Source: Pseudomonadota bacterium | Lineage (GTDB): Bacteria; Pseudomonadota; Gammaproteobacteria; Pseudomonadales; JAXHSS01 | NCBI GenBank assembly: GCA_034190675.1 | Contig: JAXHSS010000003.1 | Span: 1 to 45,701, forward strand | DNA length: 45,701 nucleotides | Direction: 5' to 3' | Shown here: positions 6,935 through 35,189 of the stretch, piece by piece | Layout of the letters: each line of letters begins with the position of its first letter | Position numbering within the stretch: position 1 is the stretch's first letter | The notes under the pieces: model-generated | Seen by the model: the letters and a program-made list of their open reading frames with translations, nothing else | Database searches by the model: none | What the model was told of the DNA's origin: nothing | Made by a program: the position numbers and the translations under genes

Positions 6935-7675
6935 ATGGCCGCCGTGCTATGCTTTTCAGGTGTGGATCCTTCAGGGGGTGCGGGATTAATCGCCGATATT
7001 GAAACGCTTCACCACTTGGGCGTCACCAATGTTGCGATTCCAACCGCAATGACCGCTCAAAACAGTCATCAAGCCCAAGGCTTTTGGCCAACAGAACCTG
7101 TCGTTATGCGCCAAATGATCGACACCCTGCTGGCAGACAAGCTACCGATTACTGTGATTAAAATTGGCATGATCGGCAATCTAAGTGTGCTCGAGCAAAT
7201 TCTTTATGCAATTGAACAGCTGCCAAACGCCAAGGTCATCTACGATCCTGTTTTGTTGGCCAGCGCGGGCAATGCATTAGTAGAACCCGAACTTCAGCAG
7301 CCCATTGGCGAGCGATTATTACCCCTCTGCGAGCTGATCACACCGAACCATTATGAGCAACAGGTTTTCGCCCCTTTTCTGATCGCAATTTGCCATCAAA
7401 ACCCACCAGCTCAGTTATTAACAGGCGGCCACGGTCAACATAACCAACAGATCATCAGCCAATTGAAAGCCGCAGGCTATCGTACAGCATTCATTCATCC
7501 ACGCTTAGCCGTAGATGTTCGTGGCACAGGCTGCATGCTGTCATCGGCGATCGCGGGTTATCTTTGTCTTGGTCAAGACCTAAGACAAGCGATTCAATCT
7601 GCGCATCAATTTGCTCATCATGCTATCCGTCAAAGCTATGATTTTGGCCAAGGAAGTCGCCGTGCCATGCGCTAG
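6935..7675 (+). CDS. thiD: Hydroxymethylpyrimidine/phosphomethylpyrimidine kinase
   Basis: Motifs GVDPSGGAGLIADI and GTGCMLSSAIA. It sits directly upstream of thiE. Confidence 0.85.
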   Translation: MAAVLCFSGVDPSGGAGLIADIETLHHLGVTNVAIPTAMTAQNSHQAQGFWPTEPVVMRQMIDTLLADKLPITVIKIGMIGNLSVLEQILYAIEQLPNAKVIYDPVLLASAGNALVEPELQQPIGERLLPLCELITPNHYEQQVFAPFLIAICHQNPPAQLLTGGHGQHNQQIISQLKAAGYRTAFIHPRLAVDVRGTGCMLSSAIAGYLCLGQDLRQAIQSAHQFAHHAIRQSYDFGQGSRRAMR

Positions 7676-9812: not shown

Positions 9813-10232
9813 TTAACTGAAGAGCGCCATTGCCGTAATAACAATCACAGCAATCATTGCCAGCAGGCCTACCACATAAAAATAACTCCGTGGGCTGGGA
9901 TTCTTTTCTGTCGCAATCACATAATAAAGCACCATATGAATCAGGCGGGCAACGGCATAAGTCCAAACCGCATAGCAAAGCCAAGAGGCATTAACGCCAA
10001 CCATCATTGCCAAAAAGACCATGACAGCAAAGGGTAGCGTGTTTTCTAATGAGTTTAAAAACGTTCGTTCGCTTCTGAACACGAAAGACTCATGTCCCAA
10101 GCTAGGATCTGTGATACCCGGAATGTATTGTTTTTGGCTGCGGTGAGCAACCATAGCGATTAATGCCTGAACAAAAACGGTCGTTAGGATCAACCAAAGA
10201 CCCGTCAAACTCGACGCATAGATTTCAAACAT
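9813..10232 (-). CDS. MAPEG-family membrane protein (membrane-associated glutathione transferase-like)
   Basis: About 139 aa with 3-4 TM helices and MAPEG-like loop motifs (FRSERTFLNSLENTLPF). I chose the start at 10232 because GGAGGA lies just upstream. The track's longer start at 10304 would run into the divergent promoter region. Confidence 0.65.
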   Translation of the reverse strand: MFEIYASSLTGLWLILTTVFVQALIAMVAHRSQKQYIPGITDPSLGHESFVFRSERTFLNSLENTLPFAVMVFLAMMVGVNASWLCYAVWTYAVARLIHMVLYYVIATEKNPSPRSYFYVVGLLAMIAVIVITAMALFS

Positions 10233-19640: not shown

Positions 19641-19683
19641 TCCGACAGTTTCAAAGCAAGCGAAAAACCGATGCTTAAAACCA

Positions 19684-19907
19684 CAACATTGCCGACCAAA
19701 ACACAAGTCAGCGCTGAATTTGATGCGAAGAGTACAAGAAAAACCGTTGATAATCAAGAAGTTTTGCTGATCAGCACCTGCCTGCAACAAGTGCTTTTCA
19801 GCACAATCAACACAGACTTGGAGACAAAACTTTTATTGAGATTTTAAGCAAGCAACACTTTTAAGTGCTCGCCTACTTTTGAAGGCCTTTGATGTTGGTA
19901 GCGGGGG
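19684..19907. repeat. Left 224-bp direct repeat (tRNA-rimP spacer plus last 12 nt of tRNA-fMet at 19896-19907)
   Basis: It aligns base-for-base with 34901-35124. I count 5 substitutions (19730, 19757, 19772, 19828, 19880) and no indels. It ends in tggtagcggggg, which is the complement of CCCCCGCUACCA. Confidence 0.92.
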
Positions 19908-20790
19908 AGGAAAGCCCCGCCATGGCCAGGCTCACGTCCCAGAGCCGCCCAGCGGTTGCTTTGTCTTTGGCCTTTTTTGCCATACGGGCTGGTTTGCTGT
20001 TGGAGAAATAGCCTCTAGTTACTGATGCAATATCAGGTGAGCTTGCTAAGTAGACGCTGGTCTCTGCCCCTTTTCTGGCGTAATTAACAAGGGCCTGACC
20101 CATTGAATGATTTGTTGCCGATCCCTGACTCATTGTTCTGTCCAAATCCACTGCGCACGGCCCCTGGGTGCAAGGCGTTCGCGGTGACTGCGGTTCCCTC
20201 AAACCGTCGTGCCAGCTCCTGAGTGAATAAAACGTTGGCTAATTTCGCGTGATTGTAGGCGTGTATTCGGTGAAGCGAACTTCGCACTTGAGGTCATTGA
20301 AATCAATTTTACCTACCCAGTGGACTATAGACGATACTGTAATAATTCGAGCAGGCGCCGATGCCTTAAGCAGGTCCAACAGTAAATGGGTTAGTAAGTA
20401 ATGGGCCAGATGGTTGGTGCCAAAGGTCATTTCGAAACCGTCTTTGGTGAGCAGTCTGTCCTTGTTCATGCCTCCAGCATTGTTCACCAGTACGTCTAAG
20501 CTGTTGGTCTTAGCCCTCACCTGTTCCGCCATATCGCGCACAGAGTCAAGATCACTGAAATTACTTTCAACAAACTCAACCTAGTGGTTGCCGGTGCTCT
20601 CTTTGATAGCTGTCACTGTGTGGGCTCCCTTTTCATGGTTACGCACATGGACAAAGACCCGTGCCCCCCATAGACGCCAGCGCATCCGCTGTTTTCTCAC
20701 CCACGCCATTGGTGGCCACGGTCACCAATACGGCTTTACCTGTCATGGAGATACTGGAGGAGTTGTTAACTGCTGTTGTCATGGAAAGAA
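19908..20790 (-). pseudogene. Short-chain dehydrogenase/reductase (retinol-dehydrogenase-like SDR), disrupted
   Basis: The SDR sequence is spread over at least 4 frames. MTGKAVLVTVATNGVGEKTA (cofactor-binding motif) is followed by a frameshift in a G/C run near 20671-20678. An in-frame TAG lies at about 20581-20583. Later pieces are LVNNAGG, IITVSSIVH and [18 protein letters not shown] (YxxxK). The last frame reads through the island junction into the tRNA fragment. Confidence 0.75.
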
Positions 20791-23210: not shown

Positions 23211-23411
23211 TTATTGGGGGGGGGGGTACACAAGAATCAAAGCAACTCCTAAAATAACCACAATCGCCACAACCAGATAAAAAACGTTCTGGCTTCCAAA
23301 GTAAGCTATGACCTTATCTTCAAATACATTTTGGATAACTAACGAAAAAAGATAGTCAACTATTCCTACGCTACCTGTGACGCCAATAGCTTTCAACCAA
23401 AAATTTTCCAT
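23211..23411 (-). CDS. Small hydrophobic protein (2 predicted TM helices), function unknown
   Basis: A 66-aa ORF beginning 3 nt after the hsdR stop. It has two hydrophobic stretches. The C-terminal YPPPQ is encoded by the homopolymer tract. Coding status is unproven. Confidence 0.4.
   Translation of the reverse strand: MENFWLKAIGVTGSVGIVDYLFSLVIQNVFEDKVIAYFGSQNVFYLVVAIVVILGVALILVYPPPQ
23216..23226. repeat. Homopolymeric G11 (C11 on coding strand) tract
   Basis: Read directly from the sequence as ttattGGGGGGGGGGGtaca. Confidence 0.95.
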
Positions 23412-23413
23412 AC

Positions 23414-26400
23414 TTACTCCCTACCCAAAACAGAATAGTCTGAGTTTTTTGTTGCAATAAGCAAATGCCTAAAAACAGCATCTGTTTTTTCTTCCACCTC
23501 GTCCGGTGCGAAACTTTCCGGCAAGCCAGTTTTCTCATCCCACAGGAAGTCCTTTATCTTGACTTTAATTTCATCACGAGTGCTCTGCTTGGCAGTAAAA
23601 TTCTGAATCCGGCCTAGCTCTTCCTTTATCGTCCTGTAAAGACCTTCGGCCACTTTTTTAATACGATCAATTTCTTTTTTGGAAAGGTCAGGCTTTAACA
23701 GCAAGTCAAACAGGGCTAAAGACTCTTCGCTTAGACCTTCTTTAACTGCTCGCTGCTCTTCTTCGCTCAGATCATCCACCAGTTTGAGCAAAGCTTCAAA
23801 CGTAGCCTCAATGGTTACGCGGTCTTTTTCGTTGTTATAGTCATTAACGATCTCTTCGTAGTGTCTTTGAAAATCCGTTCGTGTTGGGTTTTTCATGAGC
23901 ATTTTGAGAAGCTTTTTCTCGATGATATCTTTCAAAGATTGAACAGTGGTGTTCTTGGCAGGTGAACGTTCAAATTCTTTTCTTAGTCGCTCAAAATCGA
24001 TCTTGCTGATATCGTAAAGTTTGCTGGGCTCACGAACACCCGTATCAGGCTCAATGCTTCCCTCAATAACAGCGTGAAGTTCGCGCATGATGTCAGAGAT
24101 ATCCGCCTTCTCAACATCCTCTTGCAGGCTCTTGTAGATAATATTGATTGCGTCGTAGGCTGATCGGTAGTTATTTATGGCTTTGATGGTTAAACAAGCC
24201 TTGAACTTTTTGAAAACCTCGCGGCAGATAATTTCAAAGCGCTTGCGGGTTTCATCATTCTGGTTAACGACTTCTTTTGCATCAATAATGGCTTTGTTGC
24301 GCTCAAAGCCTTTTTTCTCCAGTACATCTTCCAATCTGAATTCTTTTGCTGCCAAAAACGCTCTTACTGCTTCAATCGTCTCTTCAAGGTCTGCCAGCAA
24401 TTCTTCTTCCGGTCTTACTGGATCAAGTTCTGGTGGTGGCTGTCCATTTCCACCTTCAACGCCCGTATGACCAGCAAAGGTCGCAAGGGCTTTGCGCAAG
24501 TTTTTCAAGATGCCGCAGTAATCAACGATAAGCCCGTTATTCTTGCCCTCGGCCACGCGGTTTGCGCGGGCGATGGCCTGCATCAAGGTGTGCGCCTTGA
24601 GCGGTTTATCGAGGTAAAGGGTAGACATGGTTGGTACATCAAAGCCAGTGAGCCACATGGCGCATACGATGGCGACACGGAACGGATGCTCTTCCTCCTT
24701 AAAAGCGCTCTCCATATCAATGCGCTTGCCGTCGGGTGTTTCAAAGCCTTCTTTAATCAGCTTACGGTGGGGGGTAATATCAAGTTCCCATTTGCGGAAC
24801 TTATCGACCTCGCCTTGCTCCTCACTAACCACCACGGCCATGATGGTCTCTCGCATCCAGACAAGCTTGCGCTCCATGTCCGCTCTTTTTTCATGAGCAG
24901 GGGCTTGCTCATCAGCCAGCTTGGGCAGCTCCTTTTCAAGCTCAGCAATTTTAGCCTGCCACTTCTCAAGAATAATCTCCTGCATCCGCACACAGGTGAT
25001 CTTATCGATGCAGACCATCATCGCCTTGCCATTCAAGCCACCCACGCTGTAGTGCTCGACAAAATCTTCAGCGATTTGCTCCAGGCGGCTTTGCGCAGTA
25101 ATCAGGTGGTAATCACGCTTTAGCTCACGCTCCAGGCGCTCTGCCACATCCCGATCTTCAATTTCAACTTTTTCCAGCTTGGCTGCGATCTTCTCGTTGA
25201 GATCATTGGTTGCAATGCCAAGCTTTTCACCGCGAGCATCGTAGTAAAGGGGCACAGTGGCTTTATCTTCCACAGCACGTTGAAAGTCATAGGTGGAGAT
25301 ATAATCCCCGAATACGCGGCGGGTGATTTCATAATCCTTGAAGAGCGGCGTTCCGGTAAAACCGATATAGCTGGCATTAGGAAGCGCATTGCGAAAGTTC
25401 AGTGACAAGCGGCCATATTGGGTGCGGTGCGCCTCGTCGGTAATAACGATAATGTCATTCCGATCTGAATAAGGATCGTCGGGATCAACATCTTTATTGA
25501 ATTTCTGCACCAGCGTAAAAACATAAGCCTTATGCTGATTTAACAGCTTTTGTAAATGATCGCCCGACCCAGCACGGCATGGGTCTTGGTCATTATCAAC
25601 AAGGCCGCACCCTGCGAAGGTGTTATAGATTTGTCCATCCAAATCTTCACGGTCAGTACAAATGAGGAAAGTAAAGTTGCCGCCTAATTTACGATGAATC
25701 TTGCGAGCGAAGAAAACAATCGAATAGGACTTACCCGAGCCCTGGGTATGCCAGAAAACACCGAGCTTGCCTTTGCGCTCTTCACGGTTCTTTACCGCTT
25801 CAATAGCGCGGTTGACGCCCAAAAACTGGTGATTACGGGCAATGATTTTGACCAGCTTGCCCTTGCTCTCATCAAACAACGTGTAGTTTTCAAAGAGATC
25901 AAGAAAATCCCGCTTGTTACAGATGCCTTTAAGCAAGGTTTCCATATCCACCACGCCTGGATCGTCTTCGGCTAAACGCTTCCAGTCATTAAAGTGTTCG
26001 AACTTACTGGAGATCGAGCCGATTTTTGCGTCCACGCCATTACCTAAAATCACAAAGGCGTTGTGATGGAAGAGATGCGGAATAGTGTCTTTATAATCGG
26101 AAAGGTTTTGCTCGTAAGCATGACGGATGTCTTTGTGAATGGTCTTGCACTCGATAAACATCAAGGGAAGGCCATTGACAAAACCAACGATGTCGGCACG
26201 GCGGCGGTAGATATCCCCGCGCACCCACAGCTCACGCACGCAAAGAAAGTGGTTGTTTTCGGGATTATCAAAATCAAAGACTCTCAGGCGCTTAAGCTCA
26301 AGCTCACCGTCTTTGTTGCGAAAATGCACCTTTACACCGTTTTTGATTAGCTCATATTGCTCAAAATTGATTTGCAATGTGTTTTCAGTCACAGGCGCTT

Positions 26401-26638
26401 CGGTGATCTGGCGCAAAGCATCCTGATAGGCGGCATCGGGCAGGCCAGGATTAAGCTTGACTAGCGCTTCGCCCAAATAGCGGGTGAGCACAACCTCTTT
26501 ATCAGAGGCCCGGCCAAGCGTGCCTTCCTTGCCAAAGGTCTCGTTGTTATAGGCGTAGATACTTTCCCAGCCAAGCTGCGCTTCCAGATAATCAGCCGTG
26601 GTTTGCTGAACCAATGTATCTTCGTTCAGGGGCGACAT
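23414..26638 (-). CDS. hsdR: Type I restriction endonuclease, R subunit (long, about 1074 aa form)
   Basis: Helicase motif I is WHTQGSGKS and motif II is VITDEAHRTQYG. The N-terminal region is nuclease-like and there is a long helical C-terminal domain. The gene is in an operon with hsdM and hsdS. Confidence 0.95.
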   Translation of the reverse strand: MSPLNEDTLVQQTTADYLEAQLGWESIYAYNNETFGKEGTLGRASDKEVVLTRYLGEALVKLNPGLPDAAYQDALRQITEAPVTENTLQINFEQYELIKNGVKVHFRNKDGELELKRLRVFDFDNPENNHFLCVRELWVRGDIYRRRADIVGFVNGLPLMFIECKTIHKDIRHAYEQNLSDYKDTIPHLFHHNAFVILGNGVDAKIGSISSKFEHFNDWKRLAEDDPGVVDMETLLKGICNKRDFLDLFENYTLFDESKGKLVKIIARNHQFLGVNRAIEAVKNREERKGKLGVFWHTQGSGKSYSIVFFARKIHRKLGGNFTFLICTDREDLDGQIYNTFAGCGLVDNDQDPCRAGSGDHLQKLLNQHKAYVFTLVQKFNKDVDPDDPYSDRNDIIVITDEAHRTQYGRLSLNFRNALPNASYIGFTGTPLFKDYEITRRVFGDYISTYDFQRAVEDKATVPLYYDARGEKLGIATNDLNEKIAAKLEKVEIEDRDVAERLERELKRDYHLITAQSRLEQIAEDFVEHYSVGGLNGKAMMVCIDKITCVRMQEIILEKWQAKIAELEKELPKLADEQAPAHEKRADMERKLVWMRETIMAVVVSEEQGEVDKFRKWELDITPHRKLIKEGFETPDGKRIDMESAFKEEEHPFRVAIVCAMWLTGFDVPTMSTLYLDKPLKAHTLMQAIARANRVAEGKNNGLIVDYCGILKNLRKALATFAGHTGVEGGNGQPPPELDPVRPEEELLADLEETIEAVRAFLAAKEFRLEDVLEKKGFERNKAIIDAKEVVNQNDETRKRFEIICREVFKKFKACLTIKAINNYRSAYDAINIIYKSLQEDVEKADISDIMRELHAVIEGSIEPDTGVREPSKLYDISKIDFERLRKEFERSPAKNTTVQSLKDIIEKKLLKMLMKNPTRTDFQRHYEEIVNDYNNEKDRVTIEATFEALLKLVDDLSEEEQRAVKEGLSEESLALFDLLLKPDLSKKEIDRIKKVAEGLYRTIKEELGRIQNFTAKQSTRDEIKVKIKDFLWDEKTGLPESFAPDEVEEKTDAVFRHLLIATKNSDYSVLGRE

Positions 26639-27636
26639 TAGCCTGCATCCTTTAGCAAAATAAAATGTTCAACCAAGCGGATCATCAGTTCTTTTTGATC
26701 GGGTTTACTCTCGGCCACTAATAAGGCCAAAGCCACCAGGGTATTGTCGTTTATGAGTTGCTCAACGGGCTTAGACAGCATGTGTTGGTGCAGCCGCAAA
26801 TACCACAAAAACAAAAACGAGCCGGTGCGTTTATTGCCATCTGCCAGGGGATGGTTCTTAATAACGAGATACAACAAATTGGCCGCACGACTGGCCACAT
26901 TGGGGTAAAACAGTTCGTCACCAAAACCCTGCTCGATGGTCGCAATGGCCGAGGCCAGGCCATCGCCACGCAGTTGGCCGAACAGTTCGGTGGCTTCGCC
27001 TTTGGCGATCAATTCTTTTTTAAGTTCGGCAACGGCCTTGAGTACATCACCCAATACCAGCGGCTGCATGGCGGCTTGTTTATGCTCGGTCTCGACCAAC
27101 GACTGCTCATCGTAGGCTTGCAGCAGGCTCCAACTGCGGGCGTAATCGCTGATCACCGCCAAGACCGCCGTGCCTTCGTTATTGACCAGCGCCTGATTGC
27201 TGAGTGTTTGGGATAATAGATCCACCGCTTGCTGGAACTCCACACCGCGCTGTTGCAGGCGCTGCTGGTTGAGGGTGTAGCCTTCCAACAAGTGTTGTTT
27301 CAGAGTTTGCGTCGCCCAGATACGAAACTGGGTCGCACGGGAAGAGTTCACCCGATACCCCACGGAAATCACGGCATCCAGATTGTAGTGTTTGCGCTGT
27401 CGCTCCACCTGTCGCTTGCCTTCGGTTTGAACTTGTAAGAAATCCTTACAGGTTGCAGGCTCATCAAGCTCCTGTTCTGAATAGATATTTTTTAAGTGCT
27501 GGGTGATATTTTGCGGTTTGACTGCAAACAGCTCTGCCATCTGGGCTTGAGTCAGCCAAACAGTCTCTTCAGATAGTCGCACGTGTACCTGCGCCTGCCC
27601 ATCTTCCAACTGGTAAATTTCAATTTGTTTATTCAT
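26638..27636 (-). CDS. RhuM-family N-terminal domain fused to Fic/Doc-type domain
   Basis: The N-terminus (WLTQAQMAELF...NITQHLKNIY...AVISVGYRVNSSRATQFRIWATQTLK) is typical of RhuM. The C-terminus carries the Fic/Doc active-site-like motif HPLADGNKRTGSF. Its stop overlaps the hsdR start (TAATG). Confidence 0.8.
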   Translation of the reverse strand: MNKQIEIYQLEDGQAQVHVRLSEETVWLTQAQMAELFAVKPQNITQHLKNIYSEQELDEPATCKDFLQVQTEGKRQVERQRKHYNLDAVISVGYRVNSSRATQFRIWATQTLKQHLLEGYTLNQQRLQQRGVEFQQAVDLLSQTLSNQALVNNEGTAVLAVISDYARSWSLLQAYDEQSLVETEHKQAAMQPLVLGDVLKAVAELKKELIAKGEATELFGQLRGDGLASAIATIEQGFGDELFYPNVASRAANLLYLVIKNHPLADGNKRTGSFLFLWYLRLHQHMLSKPVEQLINDNTLVALALLVAESKPDQKELMIRLVEHFILLKDAG

Positions 27637-27679
27637 GCTTAATCAGCCTGAACCCGCGTATCTTCATTGAGCGGTGCCA

Positions 27680-28918
27680 TCATACTGCAATCTCCCCGTT
27701 CATGAGTTTAGGAAGAAGGAGATCACGGGCTTGTGTAAGCCTGAAGATTTGATCAACTAAATTGAGACGTAATGTAAACAGGTTTTCCGTTTCATCCAGG
27801 AATGTGTTTAGTAATGTCTCTGGGGGAATAGGAAGTTCAATAGATTCAATCTGTTTGGCACTGATGTTTGGCTGCGCAGCTCCACCAGCCAAATTTAAAA
27901 TTGAAGACTGAGCCTTTTCTGAATTGAAAAAAGACAATAGTAGTGGCGTTACATCTCTGCCGATTTTTGTCTCAAACTTCCCAACCCGTTGATTTAGATA
28001 AAATGACCGCTCACTTGTAGGCATCAAGCCAACTTTACCAACTGTAGCTCCGGTCATAGCTATCAGCATATCTCCGGCAGACAATTTGAACTTGGCCGCT
28101 TTCTCTGCAACATTATCGTCAACGCACTGACAACCCGAAACATCAACAGTATTAGTACTTGTTATATTTTTAATTTTGATTACTGGGTTTCCTTCTTCGA
28201 GCCAATCCTTACTTTTAAAGGCATAGCCTGAAAACACTTTAGCAGTGTCTCCGACGCACCCAGCCGTCCACCCCTCCGGCACGCCATCAATAATTTTAAC
28301 ATGCTCATGGCCGGGGAAGCGGAAACGTACAAACCATTCTTTGTAAAGCTGCCGCGCTGATTCCTCCAGCAACTCAATCCGCCGCTTGTTGTTTTCGATA
28401 AGGTCGTCATAAGCTCCAATTACACCAACGATACGATTTTGGCTTTCTAAGTCAGGCACGTTGACTTTGAATCCTTTCAGCATCGTTAAGTTTATGTTCG
28501 GTTGTGCCGCCTGTCCTCCGCCAATGCCTTGGCACATTGCAAAGGTGCTGGGATTCTTGAAATGGTAGTAAATATAACGAGGATTAGCTTCTTCCTTTTT
28601 AACCCTAGCAATGCCAACTGCTTGGTTGGTGTTTGCAGGAACATCCGAAGGTCTAACATATCCACATTTACCAACGTTAGCCCCTGCAATAGTTACGAGC
28701 ACATCATGTTGCTGAAGCTTTGAACGCTTTAATTTTTCGTGGGTTTCGTCATCGATAAACGTAAAACCACTTCGATCAAGAGTGACATCCCCGTTGAGAG
28801 CCTCAGCTTTAACAAAGTTTATACCTTCGTCAGTGAATGGCATTCCATAAGTAGATGGCGTAGTCCCTTTTGTAACCACTTCGGTTATGTCATCAATACT
28901 TTTGACGCACCAACTCAT
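27680..28918 (-). CDS. hsdS: Type I R-M specificity subunit (two target recognition domains)
   Basis: The central conserved helix is NNKRRIELLEESARQLYKEWFVRFRFPGHE and the C-terminal conserved helix is RLTQARDLLLPKLMNGEI. The start overlaps the hsdM stop by 4 nt. Confidence 0.9.
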   Translation of the reverse strand: MSWCVKSIDDITEVVTKGTTPSTYGMPFTDEGINFVKAEALNGDVTLDRSGFTFIDDETHEKLKRSKLQQHDVLVTIAGANVGKCGYVRPSDVPANTNQAVGIARVKKEEANPRYIYYHFKNPSTFAMCQGIGGGQAAQPNINLTMLKGFKVNVPDLESQNRIVGVIGAYDDLIENNKRRIELLEESARQLYKEWFVRFRFPGHEHVKIIDGVPEGWTAGCVGDTAKVFSGYAFKSKDWLEEGNPVIKIKNITSTNTVDVSGCQCVDDNVAEKAAKFKLSAGDMLIAMTGATVGKVGLMPTSERSFYLNQRVGKFETKIGRDVTPLLLSFFNSEKAQSSILNLAGGAAQPNISAKQIESIELPIPPETLLNTFLDETENLFTLRLNLVDQIFRLTQARDLLLPKLMNGEIAV

Positions 28919-30945
28919 ATCCCCAACTCCTCAAAAATCTTCTGAATTTGAGCGGCAAGAGTAGCGGCTTCTTCGTTCAACCCTTTCAGCTCAATATGAA
29001 TATCACGTAGGGTTTCTTCAAAGTCGAAATCTTCGTCCTCGACCTCTGGTGCCACACCAACATAGCGCCCCGGGGTCAGGCTCCAGTCATTGGCTTTGAT
29101 CTCTTCGGTATCCACCAGCTTGACCAGGCCTTCCACATCAGCAAGCTGCGCATCAGGGAAGCGTTCTTGCAGCCAGTGGGCTTGTTTGAAGAAATAACGG
29201 ATCAGTTTTAACTGCTCGACGGCTTCTTTGCGCTGTTCATCAAGTGCTTTGATGGGTTTATTTAACCCCTTTTCACCGGCTTTTTTCAGGCGCTCTTGGC
29301 TGTCTTTGGCCTGCTTTTCAACAAACTTGTAGAGCTGGTCAATCTGCTTGATCAGGTCTCGGCTGGTTTCGGCTAAAGGTTCCAGTTTTTCAGCGGAGGC
29401 CTTCAGCCCCGCATTATCCTTCGCCGATTTCTTCCAAGCTTTGCTCTCGGCATCAATGCTGGCTTCAAATACGTTGATATCCTTAGCCAACACGTCAAAG
29501 GCGCTTTTCGTTTCATCATCGACTTCAGGGAGCTTGGCGATCAATTCATCCAGCCCGGCAATAAAGCCATCCATCTGCTCTTTGCTGGCCTTTGCCTCTG
29601 CAAGTGTGCGATCAAGGTAGCTTTCAACCAACTCCAAAAAACGTTCGTTCTGCCCACGATAAAGCCAGATGATAGAAGTCAGATTGGCCAGTTGCTCGGG
29701 CGAGAAGTCGTAAATTTTGCGCGTGACCTTGCGGTAGACATTGCGCGCATCGAGCATCAGCACCTTGTCTTTCATGGCTTCCGCTTTGTTCTTGTTAAAG
29801 AACCAAAGCTCACAGGGCACTGAGCGGGTATAGAAGAAGTTGGAACGGATGGCGACCATCGCTCCAACATGACCACTCTCAACCAGCTTGCGGCGTACCT
29901 CGGCCTCTTGCCCTCCGGCGCTTGATGCCTGTGAAGACATAACAAAACCTGCGCGGCCTTCGTCATTCAAATAACTGTAAAAGTAGGAAATCCAGAGATA
30001 GTTACCGTTGGAAACGGCGCCTTTCTTATTGACCCCCGGCAGCCCAAACGGCAAACGCGGATCGTTTTTAATTTTCTCCGCGTCCACGTCATCGACGTTG
30101 AATGGCGGATTGGCCATCACGAAGTTGGCTTTGCCGAGAAAATCATGTGGGTCTTCGTAATAGGAAATCGCCTTTTGTATTTTGCCTTCCAGCCCATGTA
30201 CCGCCAGGTTCATTTTGGCCAAGCGGATGGTGGTGGGGTTTTTCTCTGCACCGTAGAAGGTCGCTACATCTTGCGGATTCTTGTGCATCTTTTCGATGAA
30301 GTGTGCGCTTTGCACAAACATCCCGCCTGAACCACAAGCAGGGTCGATGACCGAGCCATGATCGGGTTCGATAAAGTTCACGATCATCTGCACCAAGGAA
30401 ACAGGCGTGAAGAATTCACCTCCGTCATGAGCGCTTTCGTTGGCAAACTGAGTTAGGAAGTATTCGTAGATGCGGCCAAAGATGTCGCCAGTCGCCTTTT
30501 TCAGAGCTGGATCGTTGAAAGTGCGCAGCAAATTACCAAGCACGTCATTGTCCAGCTCTTGATATTCGCTCTTGGGCAATACGCCTTTGAGAGTTTCGTA
30601 GTCTTCTTCAATGGCCTCCATCGCGTCGATGATAGCCTGGGCGCGGTCATCGCCCTCAGTCAGATTGATCAGATAATCGAATTGGGCTTTTTCCTGAAGG
30701 AAGATAGCGCCTTTACTGGAGAAGTCTTCCTTGGTGAGCGGCCTGGTCACGCCGCCTCGGGATGGCAAAGATGCTTCGATTTCTGGCTTCACCGCGAGAT
30801 AACGGCTATAGGCATGACGAAGGAAGATAAGCCCCATCACGGGCATAAAGTATTCATTGCTGGCGTAATTGCTGTTGGCGCGAAGGTTGTCGGCGCTGCC
30901 CCACAGTCGTTTCTCTATTGCTTCTATATTATCTAGCTGAGCCAT
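28915..30945 (-). CDS. hsdM: Type I R-M N6-adenine DNA methyltransferase subunit with about 200-aa coiled-coil insertion/extension
   Basis: The SAM-binding motif is VIDPACGSGGMF and the catalytic motif is VMANPPFN. I chose the start at ATG 30945, which has GGAG 7-10 nt upstream. The track's start at 30996 would overlap the upstream HTH gene. Confidence 0.93.
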   Translation of the reverse strand: MAQLDNIEAIEKRLWGSADNLRANSNYASNEYFMPVMGLIFLRHAYSRYLAVKPEIEASLPSRGGVTRPLTKEDFSSKGAIFLQEKAQFDYLINLTEGDDRAQAIIDAMEAIEEDYETLKGVLPKSEYQELDNDVLGNLLRTFNDPALKKATGDIFGRIYEYFLTQFANESAHDGGEFFTPVSLVQMIVNFIEPDHGSVIDPACGSGGMFVQSAHFIEKMHKNPQDVATFYGAEKNPTTIRLAKMNLAVHGLEGKIQKAISYYEDPHDFLGKANFVMANPPFNVDDVDAEKIKNDPRLPFGLPGVNKKGAVSNGNYLWISYFYSYLNDEGRAGFVMSSQASSAGGQEAEVRRKLVESGHVGAMVAIRSNFFYTRSVPCELWFFNKNKAEAMKDKVLMLDARNVYRKVTRKIYDFSPEQLANLTSIIWLYRGQNERFLELVESYLDRTLAEAKASKEQMDGFIAGLDELIAKLPEVDDETKSAFDVLAKDINVFEASIDAESKAWKKSAKDNAGLKASAEKLEPLAETSRDLIKQIDQLYKFVEKQAKDSQERLKKAGEKGLNKPIKALDEQRKEAVEQLKLIRYFFKQAHWLQERFPDAQLADVEGLVKLVDTEEIKANDWSLTPGRYVGVAPEVEDEDFDFEETLRDIHIELKGLNEEAATLAAQIQKIFEELGI

Positions 30946-30952
30946 TCGGCTG

Positions 30953-31135
30953 TTACTCCGTTTCTTTCTTCTTCTTTTCTTCAATCCAGCGTTCAATATC
31001 TTCGGTTTTAAAACGCCAGCTTCCTCCTACCTTAAAACCAGGTAATTTGCCTTCAGCGGCTAGCTTGTAAGCCGTTTTTTCAGCGAGCTTTAGGTAAGCC
31101 GCCACCTCTTTTAAAGTTAATATTTGATCAGTCAT
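30953..31135 (-). CDS. Small excisionase/AlpA-type helix-turn-helix DNA-binding protein
   Basis: 60 aa: MTDQILTLKEVAAYLKLAEKTAYKLAAEGKLPGFKVGGSWRFKTEDIERWI. It ends 7 nt before the hsdM start. The longer track ORF (to 31261) adds an implausible N-terminus. Confidence 0.75.
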   Translation of the reverse strand: MTDQILTLKEVAAYLKLAEKTAYKLAAEGKLPGFKVGGSWRFKTEDIERWIEEKKKKETE

Positions 31136-31551
31136 AGCATTTTCTGCCCTCATAACTATAGGGGAGAATATGGGAAAATAGATGAATTCACAACCAAAGA
31201 GATTTACGCTGGTGCAGTTATATACACTCGCATCCAAGATCGCGCCTTGGTCGTCCTCCACTGGCGAAACAGTGGTCGAGGTTAAGCGTCGAAATGCTTA
31301 CAGCATCCAATCCGCGCAGGGTTGGTCGAGGGAGTTCATGAGGGGCTATGGCTATGACATGCCCCTTTGATTGATGGGAAGTCCATGAAGGGAGAGCTAA
31401 CTTCTCCTTTCTGGTTGATGGGGTTGCAAGGGGAGAGCAAAATCTCAGCCTTGCCCATGGGGTTCTTAGGGCTTTGAGATTTGGCTCGCCCGCTGTTTCC
31501 TCAAAAAAAGCACAATAAGCGAACAACAGCACATAGAAGCACCTCGAAAAA

Positions 31552-31676
31552 AGCAACATATATGCTTCTTTTTGCCACTGAAAGACTTCAATTCTTCAAA
31601 AGCAACTTATATGTTGCTGAAGCTAAAAAAAGAAACTAATATGTTTCTTAATGGTAAATAGCAACATATACGCTTC
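31552..31676. promoter_or_regulatory. Four operator-like 17-18-bp dyad repeats upstream of the hipB-like gene
   Basis: The four copies are agcaacatatatgcttc (31552-31568), agcaacttatatgttgct (31601-31618), agaaactaatatgtttct (31631-31648) and agcaacatatacgcttc (31660-31676). The shared pattern is AGmAAC-N6-GyTTCT/GCT with dyad symmetry. Confidence 0.6.
31614..31642 (+). promoter_or_regulatory. Candidate sigma70 promoter of hipBA-like operon
   Basis: The -35 is TTGCTG (31614-31619), the spacer is 17 bp, and the -10 is TAATAT (31637-31642). The hexamers lie inside operator copies 2 and 3, and copy 4 lies in the leader. Confidence 0.5.
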
Positions 31677-31679
31677 ATT

Positions 31680-32018
31680 ATGAATTCACTACTCGAACAA
31701 ATCAAAAAACGCCGTATCGCATTGAAGCTTAAGCAGCACGATATGATGCTGCGCGTTGGTATATCGCGCCAGCAATATCAGCGCTTGGAATCCAAAGGCA
31801 ATCCGCGCCTCGATACTCTTGAGCTTGTCGCTAAGGGGCTTAAAAGTGAGTTGCTGCTGATACCACAAGAAAAATTGAATGCTGTGCTGGCGGTACTGGC
31901 CGACGATACTCTTTCACCCACTGGGCCATCAAATGGCACACCAAGCAAGACAGAAAAAGAACAAAGTAACCCACTGGCTGATGATCCATGGCAGGGTTTG
32001 CTGGGAGAGAATGAATGA
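31680..32018 (+). CDS. XRE-family HTH protein, HipB-like antitoxin
   Basis: HTH motif LKLKQHDMMLRVGISRQQYQRLESKGNPRLDTLELVAKGL. There is a 4-nt ATGA overlap with the downstream kinase gene. Confidence 0.8.
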   Translation: MNSLLEQIKKRRIALKLKQHDMMLRVGISRQQYQRLESKGNPRLDTLELVAKGLKSELLLIPQEKLNAVLAVLADDTLSPTGPSNGTPSKTEKEQSNPLADDPWQGLLGENE

Positions 32019-33319
32019 GCACAGATAGCAATGATGAAGTCAATGTTCTACAGCTCTCAATTCATGGCGTGCTGATCGGCTATCTCGCAGGGTTTAAGAA
32101 TGGCCGCAATGTTTTGAGCATTGCAGACTCATTTAAAAACGATCCTGAACGTCCGACATTCAGCCTGATTACTCATCCCGCGTTTCCGAATGCGGCCAAG
32201 CTCATGGCTGCGCCATGGGCGCGGAATCAACGGCTGCATCCTGTACTTTCAAACTTGTTACCAGAGGGATCATTACGTGAGCTGATCTCACAAGGCCTGA
32301 AAGTGCATATAGATAATGAATTTCACATTTTCTCGTATCTTGGCGAAGATTTGCCGGGAGCTATCGAAGCCACGCCCATGGAGCCTGAAGATGTTCCCGT
32401 CCTTTTATTAGAGAGTGTCCTGAGCACGCACGGAAAGGCTAAGGCAGTTAAGTTCGATAAAGATGCCATCTACAAAAAAGGAAGAGAAAACAAGTTTTCC
32501 TTGGCTGGCGTACAAATGAAGTTTTCCATGAAGGAGAAGGATGGGCGCTATAACTTATCCAAGGGTGACGTGCTGGGTGATTGGATCATCAAAACGCCCT
32601 CAACCAAGCACAAGTTTGTGCCATTGAACGAATATACCGCCATGTCGCTGGCGGGGCTCGTTGGCGTTGATATTCCTGAGATCAAATTGGTTGAGCTGAA
32701 TCAGCTCGACAATCTGCCACAAATTAACTTACCCGATGAAAAGCAGGCCTTTGCCATTAAGCGATTTGATCGTGACGACGACATGCGCATTCACATGGAA
32801 GACTTCGCGCAAATTCTGGTGAAGTATCCGCACGAAAAATACACTTCGGCCAATTATGAGAATATCGGTAAAGTCATTTATGACTTTTCTGGCGACGGCC
32901 TTGCCGACGCTCAACAGTTCGCAAGGCGATTACTGGTGAATATTCTCTTGGCCAATGGCGATGCACATCTCAAGAACTGGAGCTTCTTGTATCCTGATAA
33001 GATCACGCCACGGCTGTCTCCTGCCTACGATATCGTTACAACCAATGTCTTTATCGAGAATGAAACCCAGTACGCGCTCAACCTCGGTAAAACCAAAGAA
33101 TGGTATAGCGTTACTATGGCGCACTTTCAGTCATGGGCAGATAAGTCGGGTATTCCGTGGCGAGCGATCAAACCTCATTTGGATGACACAATGACAAAAG
33201 CGAGAGAGTTATGGCCTGAGGCTCTGAAAGCGTTACCGATGGACGAAGCGCACAAAGATACGCTCAGAGAACATTGGGTAAAACTTCATGATGAATTCAA
33301 AATTAATGCCGTAAAGTAA
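32015..33319 (+). CDS. HipA-family serine/threonine kinase toxin
   Basis: The N-terminal region is a coupling domain (LSIHGVLIGYL). Other motifs are FSLAGVQMKFS and the catalytic loop LLANGDAHLKNWSFLY, followed by LSPAYDIV. Length is 434 aa. Confidence 0.88.
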   Translation: MSTDSNDEVNVLQLSIHGVLIGYLAGFKNGRNVLSIADSFKNDPERPTFSLITHPAFPNAAKLMAAPWARNQRLHPVLSNLLPEGSLRELISQGLKVHIDNEFHIFSYLGEDLPGAIEATPMEPEDVPVLLLESVLSTHGKAKAVKFDKDAIYKKGRENKFSLAGVQMKFSMKEKDGRYNLSKGDVLGDWIIKTPSTKHKFVPLNEYTAMSLAGLVGVDIPEIKLVELNQLDNLPQINLPDEKQAFAIKRFDRDDDMRIHMEDFAQILVKYPHEKYTSANYENIGKVIYDFSGDGLADAQQFARRLLVNILLANGDAHLKNWSFLYPDKITPRLSPAYDIVTTNVFIENETQYALNLGKTKEWYSVTMAHFQSWADKSGIPWRAIKPHLDDTMTKARELWPEALKALPMDEAHKDTLREHWVKLHDEFKINAVK

Positions 33320-34547: not shown

Positions 34548-34900
34548 TCATATGAGTTTCATTTGATTAACATCGTGCAGCTTGCCATCAGGCGGGTCGC
34601 CTCTTAATAGCGCCATCCAGTCACGTTTATCAAACAAATTAAGCTGCAATAGCCGTAATAACTGCTGCATACTTTTTGTGAGTCCTGACTGAAATTTCAG
34701 AAATGAAATGAGTAGGTATACGCACATCGCTATCCATATTTTTGTCACCACCGCATTCTTACGGGTGCCAACAAATGATTTTATTTTCAGGTTCTGTTTT
34801 ACCCATTTAAAAAATAATTCCACTTGCCATCTGGCTTTGTAAATATCCATATTTGTCAGTTGCTTATACCAATCGTAATCATTGTACGCCTTATCAATCG
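34548..34900 (-). mobile_element. IS4-family DDE transposase, C-terminal fragment only (pseudogene)
   Basis: The fragment contains DKAYNDYDWY (second-Asp region) and YKARWQVELFFKWVKQNLKIK (Y-x2-R-x3-E motif). The N-terminal two-thirds are missing. The homology stops exactly where the right direct repeat begins. Confidence 0.8.
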
Positions 34901-35112
34901 CAACATTGCCGACCAAAACACAAGTCAGCGCTGAATTTGATGCGAAAAGTACAAGAAAAACCGTTGATAATCAGGAAGTTTTGCTGATTAGCACCTGCCT
35001 GCAACAAGTGCTTTTCAGCACAATCAACACAGACTTGGAGACAATACTTTTATTGAGATTTTAAGCAAGCAACACTTTTAAGTGCTCGCCTACTTTGGAA
35101 GGCCTTTGATGT

Positions 35113-35124
<12 letters not shown>
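34901..35124. repeat. Right 224-bp direct repeat (overlaps 3' 12 nt of intact tRNA-fMet)
   Basis: Partner of 19684-19907, with 219 of 224 positions identical by my manual alignment. Confidence 0.92.

Positions 35125-35189
<65 letters not shown>

Follow-up and report, generated by a model that had tools for sequence, protein, structure and literature searches.

What does a gene that joins a RhuM-type N-terminus to a Doc toxin domain do between the specificity and the restriction genes of a Type I restriction-modification (R-M) operon, and does its product depend on that R-M system to be kept in check? This question is raised by contig JAXHSS010000003.1 of a gammaproteobacterial genome assembly (GCA_034190675.1), analysed here as one stretch of 45,701 nucleotides (from here on, the window). 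It contains a five-gene operon in which the order on the minus strand is HTH_17, hsdM, hsdS, RhuM-N/Doc fusion gene and hsdR, and in which the TAA stop codon of the fusion gene and the ATG of hsdR have one base in common (TAATG). An earlier note on this DNA, made without database searches and referred to below as the sequence-only reading, had given the same order on a single strand and the same stop/start overlap, and both statements proved correct. It had also proposed that the fusion protein is an abortive-infection effector kept latent by the R-M complex in the manner of PrrC. The reading that we prefer, and to which we give an even chance of being right, is that of a single-polypeptide, self-regulated Doc-kinase effector which is borne on a cassette and provides a second layer of defence at the hsdS/hsdR junction.

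The domain architecture of the fusion protein is evident from profile searches. Towards its N-terminus, residues 61-133 match the Pfam profile Virulence_RhuM (E 7.6e-27; 94.6 bits against a cut-off of 33.7), a match that spans only positions 1-73 of the 252 positions of the model, whereas canonical members of this family match positions 1-249. Residues 201-280 match the Pfam Fic/DOC profile (PF02661; E 1.2e-10; 42.5 bits against a cut-off of 24), and the PHROG profile named 'Doc-like toxin' extends over residues 200-323, corresponding to positions 8-122 of its 128. A PADLOC profile, PDLC04964 (PDC-S23), covers the polypeptide almost from end to end, with residues 1-329 aligned to positions 1-330 of a profile of 331 (E 3.2e-168). 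Matches of this kind are far from anything expected by chance, and set against thousands of homologues the ORF has its full length. Over residues 4-129, the fusion protein shares 48% identity with the start of canonical RhuM; beyond this point the two families are unrelated, and where canonical RhuM has its C-terminal region, the fusion protein has a helical linker and the Doc domain. The domain assignment of the sequence-only reading is right, with the refinement that RhuM likeness is limited to the first 130 residues or so. The RhuM module of about 130 residues is also found as a stand-alone protein in phages and in Streptococcus satellites. That the C-terminal region of canonical RhuM might itself be Doc-like was considered as well and rejected, as the profile comparison aligns residues 4-129 only.

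The Fic/Doc-type active-site motif that had been noticed in the C-terminal half is present and intact. It reads HPLADGNKRTGSF and is of the Doc type, with Lys and not Gly at the distinguishing position: the Doc motif has the form HxFx(D/N)(A/G)NKR and carries a Lys where Fic AMPylases have a Gly. The segment HPLADGNKR (residues 262-270) aligns to HIFNDANKR of P1 Doc. Among 129 relatives that are 42-80% identical to the fusion protein, H262, D266, N268, K269 and R270 are kept in every sequence, and G267 is kept in 128. Two residues of the linker, Y165 and D176, are invariant in the same 129 sequences. The inhibitory motif [ST]xxxE[GN] of Fic proteins was sought in the linker and Doc regions of this set and was not conserved; hence, a mechanism of the Fic-style alpha-inh type is not supported.

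An AlphaFold (AF2) model built from this alignment of 129 sequences has a predicted local distance difference test score (pLDDT) of 78.5, with values of about 90 in the Doc half and of 72-91 over most of residues 21-110, where there is a dip to 64 at residues 71-80; a model from a shallower alignment (20 sequences, 74-80% identical) reached a pLDDT of 45 and was unusable. When the predicted Doc half was compared with known structures by Foldseek, it matched P1 Doc (3dd7) with a probability of 1.00, a template modelling (TM) score of 0.65 per target and a root-mean-square deviation of 3.1 A, and it also matched FICD. The predicted N-terminal half resembles models of viral and phage proteins named 'Bro-N', 'KilA-N', 'antirepressor' and 'virulence protein'. 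No significant match came from searching the PDB by sequence with the family profile, and hhalign against P1 Doc aligned the motif region alone, with a low probability.

P1 Doc phosphorylates EF-Tu at T382 and halts translation (PMC5851678). By analogy, we consider the C-terminal Doc domain of the fusion protein most likely to be a protein kinase with the effect of arresting translation. The variable RhuM module and the linker most likely hold this domain inactive, and the RhuM module would set it free upon a phage DNA or protein cue; the R-M complex would not be required for this restraint. The fusion protein would be co-translated with HsdR and form a second defence layer, and its gene would be a mobile cassette with a preference for landing, and being exchanged, where hsdS meets hsdR in Type I R-M operons of diverse kinds. 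What the analysis shows directly is the domain architecture, the invariance of the motif, the lack of an antitoxin gene, the genomic distribution, the mosaic evolution and the insertion scar; kinase activity, EF-Tu as its target, the trigger and a phenotype against phages are inferred.

The immediate surroundings of the gene bear on this proposal in two ways. The spacer of 43 nt that separates hsdS from the fusion gene contains no Phd-type antitoxin gene and is occupied by a mini-ORF of 13 codons alone, MAPLNEDTRVQAD followed by a stop codon. Its ATG overlaps the stop codon of hsdS (TGATG), and its own stop codon lies 2 nt ahead of the ATG of the fusion gene. This mini-ORF resembles the genuine start of HsdR, MSPLNEDTLVQQTTAD, and is, to judge from the similarity of the two sequences, a degenerate copy of the beginning of hsdR. 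We searched for such remnants in 33 loci with an adjacent hsdR, using shuffled controls for each locus; the window's own control is not among them, so that its DNA alignment score of 29 is to be read against the nulls from other loci, which have means of 13-18 and maxima of 18-28. Only two of the 33 loci stand clearly above their shuffled controls, and the scar is therefore not universal. One of them (L024) belongs to the same R-M family as the window and has a longer remnant at about 9895-9990, with a score of 55 against a shuffled mean of 17; the other (L043) has a different HsdR family and bears an independent remnant at about 7225-7275, MALLSKAQLETALLN compared with MAFLSEAQLETALLE. Such a remnant ahead of the fusion gene implies that the gene integrated into the beginning of hsdR, at an hsdS/hsdR junction that once overlapped. 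What is left of this hsdR start may now pass on the translational coupling from hsdS.

Relatives of the fusion protein are numerous. There are more than 8000 homologues, the closest among the matches listed being 80-82% identical, and 1274 representatives were matched with E <= 1e-30 in a library of representatives of 50%-identity clusters; the family abounds in Gamma- and Betaproteobacteria that live freely in the sea or in fresh water, and also in other phyla. To assess genomic contexts, we surveyed the 80 loci with the best matches in species-representative genomes; their proteins are 67-81% identical to that of the window. The fusion gene lies immediately upstream of hsdR in 34 of the 80, and in seven more hsdR follows two to three genes downstream. 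Nine loci carry Type I-like genes elsewhere, in another arrangement and often with weak matches, 19 show no detectable Type I gene over at least 5 kb on both sides, and the remaining 11 are too short to judge, which leaves 69 informative loci. As the chance that a random gene lies directly upstream of hsdR is estimated at about 1 in several thousand, the association with Type I R-M systems is real, yet it is not obligatory. On this point the sequence-only reading is supported, the association being a strong one. Standalone copies make up 19 of the 69 informative loci (about 28%), 18 of these 19 are intact and have the motif, and their neighbours are mostly housekeeping genes.

In the 34 loci with an adjacent hsdR, the junctions listed are overlaps of 1 or 4 bases in about ten cases and gaps of about 1-25 nt in most others. 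Other embedded genes usually stand upstream of the fusion gene, not between it and hsdR. The slot also hosts genes for Mrr, DUF4268/PD-(D/E)XK, AAA_13, AbiEii-like AAA_21, Schlafen, FRG, DUF1016 and canonical RhuM proteins; those of the AAA_13 type are presumably PrrC/RloC-like. A close relative on a Methylophaga plasmid is annotated in the order hsdM-hsdS-RhuM/Fic/DOC-hsdR, and on a Legionella plasmid the fusion gene is the passenger of a Tn3-family transposon. Among six distant relatives (42-56% identity), one lies beside an integrase gene, one overlaps RmuC in the vicinity of Cas3, and one sits in a locus with hipBA and Type I-like genes (L089); the other three are in none of these contexts, and one of them adjoins other Fic-domain genes.

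The partner HsdR proteins of the surveyed loci fall into five clusters that are mutually only about 27% identical. For the fusion protein, identity is 69% inside a cluster and likewise 69% from one cluster to another (Mantel r 0.16, p ~0.09); in these comparisons, it does not co-diverge with HsdR. When the DNA of the window is compared with that of the locus of the same R-M family introduced above (L024), hsdM and hsdR are 82-91% identical, whereas identity falls to 30-65% in the target-recognition regions of hsdS and in the 5' two-thirds of the fusion gene, and returns to 75-85% within the Doc-coding third. This recovery inside the Doc part indicates that a recombination breakpoint, at about 27070-27220, lies within the fusion gene. 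When the loci are compared pairwise, identity averages 85% in the Doc half and 60% in the N-terminal module, a pattern in which a conserved effector is linked to an N-terminal module that diversifies and can be exchanged.

A rival to a self-regulated effector is the guard arrangement of the sequence-only reading, according to which the R-M complex binds the fusion protein and keeps it latent until phage anti-restriction unleashes translation arrest by Doc. The gene does occupy the slot between hsdS and hsdR, where we take PrrC to be specifically encoded, and it is coupled to hsdR through TAATG; the 34 of 80 loci in which it lies directly upstream of hsdR, while other embedded genes are usually further upstream, point the same way, as does the remark of Anantharaman et al. 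(2013) that RhuM-like and DOC genes occur in R-M loci alongside PrrC-like genes. Against this stands the fraction of standalone copies, which argues against a latency that depends on R-M, since about 28% of the informative close relatives are intact in places where no Type I gene was detected nearby, and Type I-like genes were found beside only one (L089) of the six distant relatives sampled. The absence of co-divergence across five HsdR clusters is likewise hard to square with a specific masking interface. Moreover, PrrC genes lie almost without exception inside Type I R-M systems (Payne et al., 2024), which is not the case for the RhuM-N/Doc family. Together, the standalone copies and the lack of co-divergence weaken the PrrC-style guard model and favour a self-contained effector that moves as a cassette; the latency proposed in the sequence-only reading finds no support, and we regard this explanation as unlikely. 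An accessory role, in which the fusion protein, with its DNA-binding-like N-terminal domain and its Doc enzyme, modifies HsdR or a host factor and in this way tunes restriction (for instance in restriction alleviation when a new host is entered), or serves to stabilise the operon or its island by addiction, appears to us as doubtful as the guard. It would fit the source name of one close relative, 'Putative DNA-binding protein in cluster with Type I restriction-modification system', the tight translational coupling to hsdR specifically, the resemblance of the predicted N-terminal fold to phage antirepressor and Bro-N regulators, and the position of the operon on a 15.2-kb island adjoining hipBA. 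However, intact copies that stand alone lack an R-M system that they could regulate, the same protein accompanies unrelated HsdR families, and a conserved effector with a variable N-terminus and swapped alleles looks more like an arms race than like housekeeping regulation.

It would be surprising, in our judgement, if the protein were instead a factor of virulence or host interaction, or a stress-responsive regulator of translation unrelated to phages, and we rate this as very improbable. The original RhuM annotation goes back, according to summaries in the literature, to invasion phenotypes connected with Salmonella SPI-3, and some recent surveys keep RhuM among toxins aimed at eukaryotic cells; the family, however, is abundant in free-living aquatic bacteria, and its neighbourhoods hold mainly Type I R-M, defence and mobile-element genes with nothing that hints at delivery into a host, although no search was aimed at secretion signals or systems. 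A further possibility concerns the trigger. The Bro-N/KilA-N-like module might be a decoy sensor for anti-restriction DNA mimics such as Ocr and ArdA, or for unmodified DNA that invades the cell, and release the Doc kinase upon binding, with translation being shut down as a result. We consider this quite unlikely; if true, it would explain how the cassette homes to unrelated Type I R-M families while working alone, it would amount to a PrrC-like backup without contact to the R-M system, and it would give the RhuM module its first defined trigger and function. Several observations also weigh against the self-regulated Doc-kinase effector that we prefer. The arrangement of the domains relative to each other is uncertain in the AF2 model (predicted TM score, pTM, 0.55), and cis-autoinhibition is for this reason not established; the assignment of the N-terminal fold rests on Foldseek E-values that are modest (3e-4 to 1e-2). 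The NCBIfam profile TIGR01550 DOC_P1 scores 27.7 bits, below its cut-off of 38.65, in a partial match to residues 248-296, so the target might not be EF-Tu. A functional link to HsdR would predict the strong preference for the slot directly upstream of hsdR, with its overlap of stop and start codons, just as well. Finally, our literature search found no paper on toxicity, kinase activity or a phage phenotype of the RhuM-N/Doc family, in line with the statement of the sequence-only reading that the role of RhuM-Doc proteins has not been characterised experimentally.

The features of the operon are collected in Table 1. Within it, hsdM and hsdS overlap by 4 nt, and the true start of hsdM is probably an ATG near 30945, as the PADLOC MTase_I match begins at residue 19. 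An HTH_17 gene precedes hsdM in two of the related loci as well (L001 and L071). At the other end of the operon, an ORF of 66 amino acids (23211-23411, minus strand), hydrophobic and membrane-like, begins 2 nt past the stop codon of hsdR; it has no Pfam match and was not found in the 80 related loci.

Table 1. Positions in the window of the genes of the Type I R-M operon and of the parts of the RhuM-N/Doc fusion gene.
Feature	Positions	Strand	Basis or remark
RhuM-N/Doc fusion gene, 332 amino acids	26638..27636	-	ORF; Pfam and PADLOC matches
Residues 1-130, RhuM N-terminal module	27247..27636	-	Predicted Bro-N/KilA-N-like fold (beta-beta-alpha-alpha-beta-beta)
Residues 131-195, helical linker	27052..27246	-	Helices 134-147 and 153-176 in the AF2 model
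Residues 196-332, complete Doc (Fic-fold) domain	26641..27051	-	PHROG, Foldseek
Catalytic motif, H262-F274 (residues 262-274)	26815..26853	-	HPLADGNKRTGSF; Doc type, HxFxDGNKR
TAATG junction of fusion gene and hsdR	26636..26640	-	TAA 26640-26638, hsdR ATG 26638-26636
13-codon mini-ORF	27639..27680	-	MAPLNEDTRVQAD and stop codon; fills the spacer between hsdS and the fusion gene
hsdS, specificity subunit	27680..28918	-	Pfam Methylase_S, PADLOC Specificity_I
hsdM, methyltransferase	28915..30996	-	Pfam N6_Mtase and HsdM_N; PADLOC MTase_I, E 1.7e-269
hsdR, restriction/translocase subunit	23414..26638	-	TIGR00348 hsdR, E 4e-150; Pfam HSDR_N, SWI2_SNF2, T1RH-like_C
Small HTH_17 protein, head of the operon, start codon uncertain	30953..31261	-	Pfam HTH_17, E 8e-18

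The operon forms part of an island of 15.2 kb that is flanked by direct repeats of 229 nt (19679-19907 and 34896-35124; 97% identical) and that sits between tRNA-Met (35113-35189, minus strand) and the rimP-nusA operon. Besides the R-M operon, the island holds hipBA, DUF4397 and esterase genes and a fragment of a DDE transposase gene; no integrase was seen among the ORFs scanned. The hipB-hipA pair, coding for an HTH_3 protein and a HipA kinase toxin (31680-33319, plus strand), is the divergent neighbour of the operon, and just upstream of hipB, at 31548-31682, a box resembling AGCAACATATATGCTTCT occurs in three direct copies and in inverted arms, a putative operator-like element. In six related loci (L019, L020, L024, L070, L071 and L089), the fusion gene likewise has HipA-like genes or fragments in its vicinity. 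Three ORF fragments that overlap one another in different frames (19873-20541, minus strand) lie at the island's left edge; they read like pieces of a single short-chain dehydrogenase and are probably a frameshifted pseudogene.

Two further observations concern the neighbourhoods of relatives. A canonical full-length RhuM gene, or a fragment for the RhuM N-terminus, accompanies the RhuM-N/Doc gene in the Type I operons of L068 (10997-12031), L063 (2474-3520) and L001 (10001-10372); such canonical RhuM genes are paralogues that have the N-terminal module in common with the fusion and differ in their C-terminal domains. In L090 (4493-7020), a locus with a distant relative, the fusion gene overlaps the upstream RmuC gene by 4 nt, with a RES-Xre toxin-antitoxin pair, a WYL regulator gene and a Cas3 CRISPR locus nearby, so that this is a defence island without a Type I R-M system.

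The fusion of the two domains, its position between hsdS and hsdR and the idea of a second line of defence are already published and catalogued. Fico and Mahillon (2006) described Doc homologues from Proteobacteria that carry a COG3943 (RhuM) domain at the N-terminus and lack an antitoxin. Anantharaman et al. (2013; PMC3710099) reported that RhuM-like genes take the position of DOC in R-M and PrrC-like neighbourhoods and that fusions of RhuM with DOC are frequent, and suggested for it the role of a toxin within a multilevel defence programme; Milman et al. (2023) found the 'virulence RhuM family protein' to be enriched next to inverting hsdS genes. Payne et al. (2024) derived their PDC candidates, which were added to PADLOC, by guilt-by-embedding from genes lying within BREX, DISARM and Type I R-M systems, and the PDC systems are accordingly predictions. 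The connection of PDC-S23 to that study rests on the name of the PADLOC model and on the description of the PDC sets in the paper; a literature search for 'PDC-S23' returned nothing, and the main text of Payne et al. names neither RhuM nor Fic. The inference drawn in the sequence-only reading is thus not a new idea, its essence having been proposed in 2013 and a matching candidate being listed by PADLOC.

The locus described here is an ordinary further member of a known candidate family and brings no new principle. New, if modest, are the scar left by the hsdR remnant, the breakpoint within the gene, the pattern of a conserved Doc domain with a variable N-terminus, and a figure for the standalone fraction. 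The practical value of the locus lies in a compact, clean and translationally coupled operon of five genes on a bounded island of 15 kb. RhuM/Doc fusions are very abundant and recurrently embedded in Type I R-M operons, and no function has been demonstrated for the RhuM module or for this Doc variant. A phenotype for the family would assign a function to proteins mislabelled as 'virulence protein' (the NCBI name for close relatives is 'virulence protein RhuM/Fic/DOC family protein'), and it would also bring a translation-arrest effector of the kinase type into bacterial immunity.

When the fusion protein is set beside named systems, its closeness to P1 Doc lies in a Fic fold of Doc size and in the HxFxDGNKR motif, in which Lys replaces the second Gly of Fic AMPylases; it differs from P1 Doc in lacking a gene for a Phd antitoxin, in bearing an N-terminal extension of about 195 residues and in remaining below the DOC_P1 cut-off. 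With SoFic, a Fic-domain system reported to be validated against coliphage T5 and to AMPylate EF-Tu, it has in common that a single protein of the Fic superfamily is proposed, or in the case of SoFic validated, in phage defence; SoFic, however, is a class II Fic AMPylase with a GNGR motif and an inhibitory helix, whereas the window protein has GNKR, a RhuM N-terminal module and no conserved [ST]xxxE[GN]. PrrC of the EcoprrI Type Ic R-M locus resembles it in its slot within a Type I R-M system and as a second line that, for the window protein, is a candidate one directed at translation. The two proteins are unrelated, the window protein consisting of RhuM-N and Fic/Doc only, without ABC-ATPase or HEPN domains, and its family is neither confined to R-M loci nor seen to co-diverge with HsdR. 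Canonical RhuM (PF13310; PADLOC PDC-S05) is homologous over the first 130 residues or so and is likewise found in Type I R-M operons, at times adjoining the fusion gene (L063, L068), but it spans all 252 Pfam positions, whereas the fusion protein has positions 1-73 and continues with the linker and Doc. The closest counterpart is the candidate family PADLOC PDC-S23, equivalent to the NCBI 'virulence protein RhuM/Fic/DOC family protein' and to the RhuM-DOC fusions of Anantharaman et al. (2013); it has the same two-domain architecture, matches the protein with a full-length profile and is embedded in Type I R-M systems in the same way, and we see no essential difference between the two.

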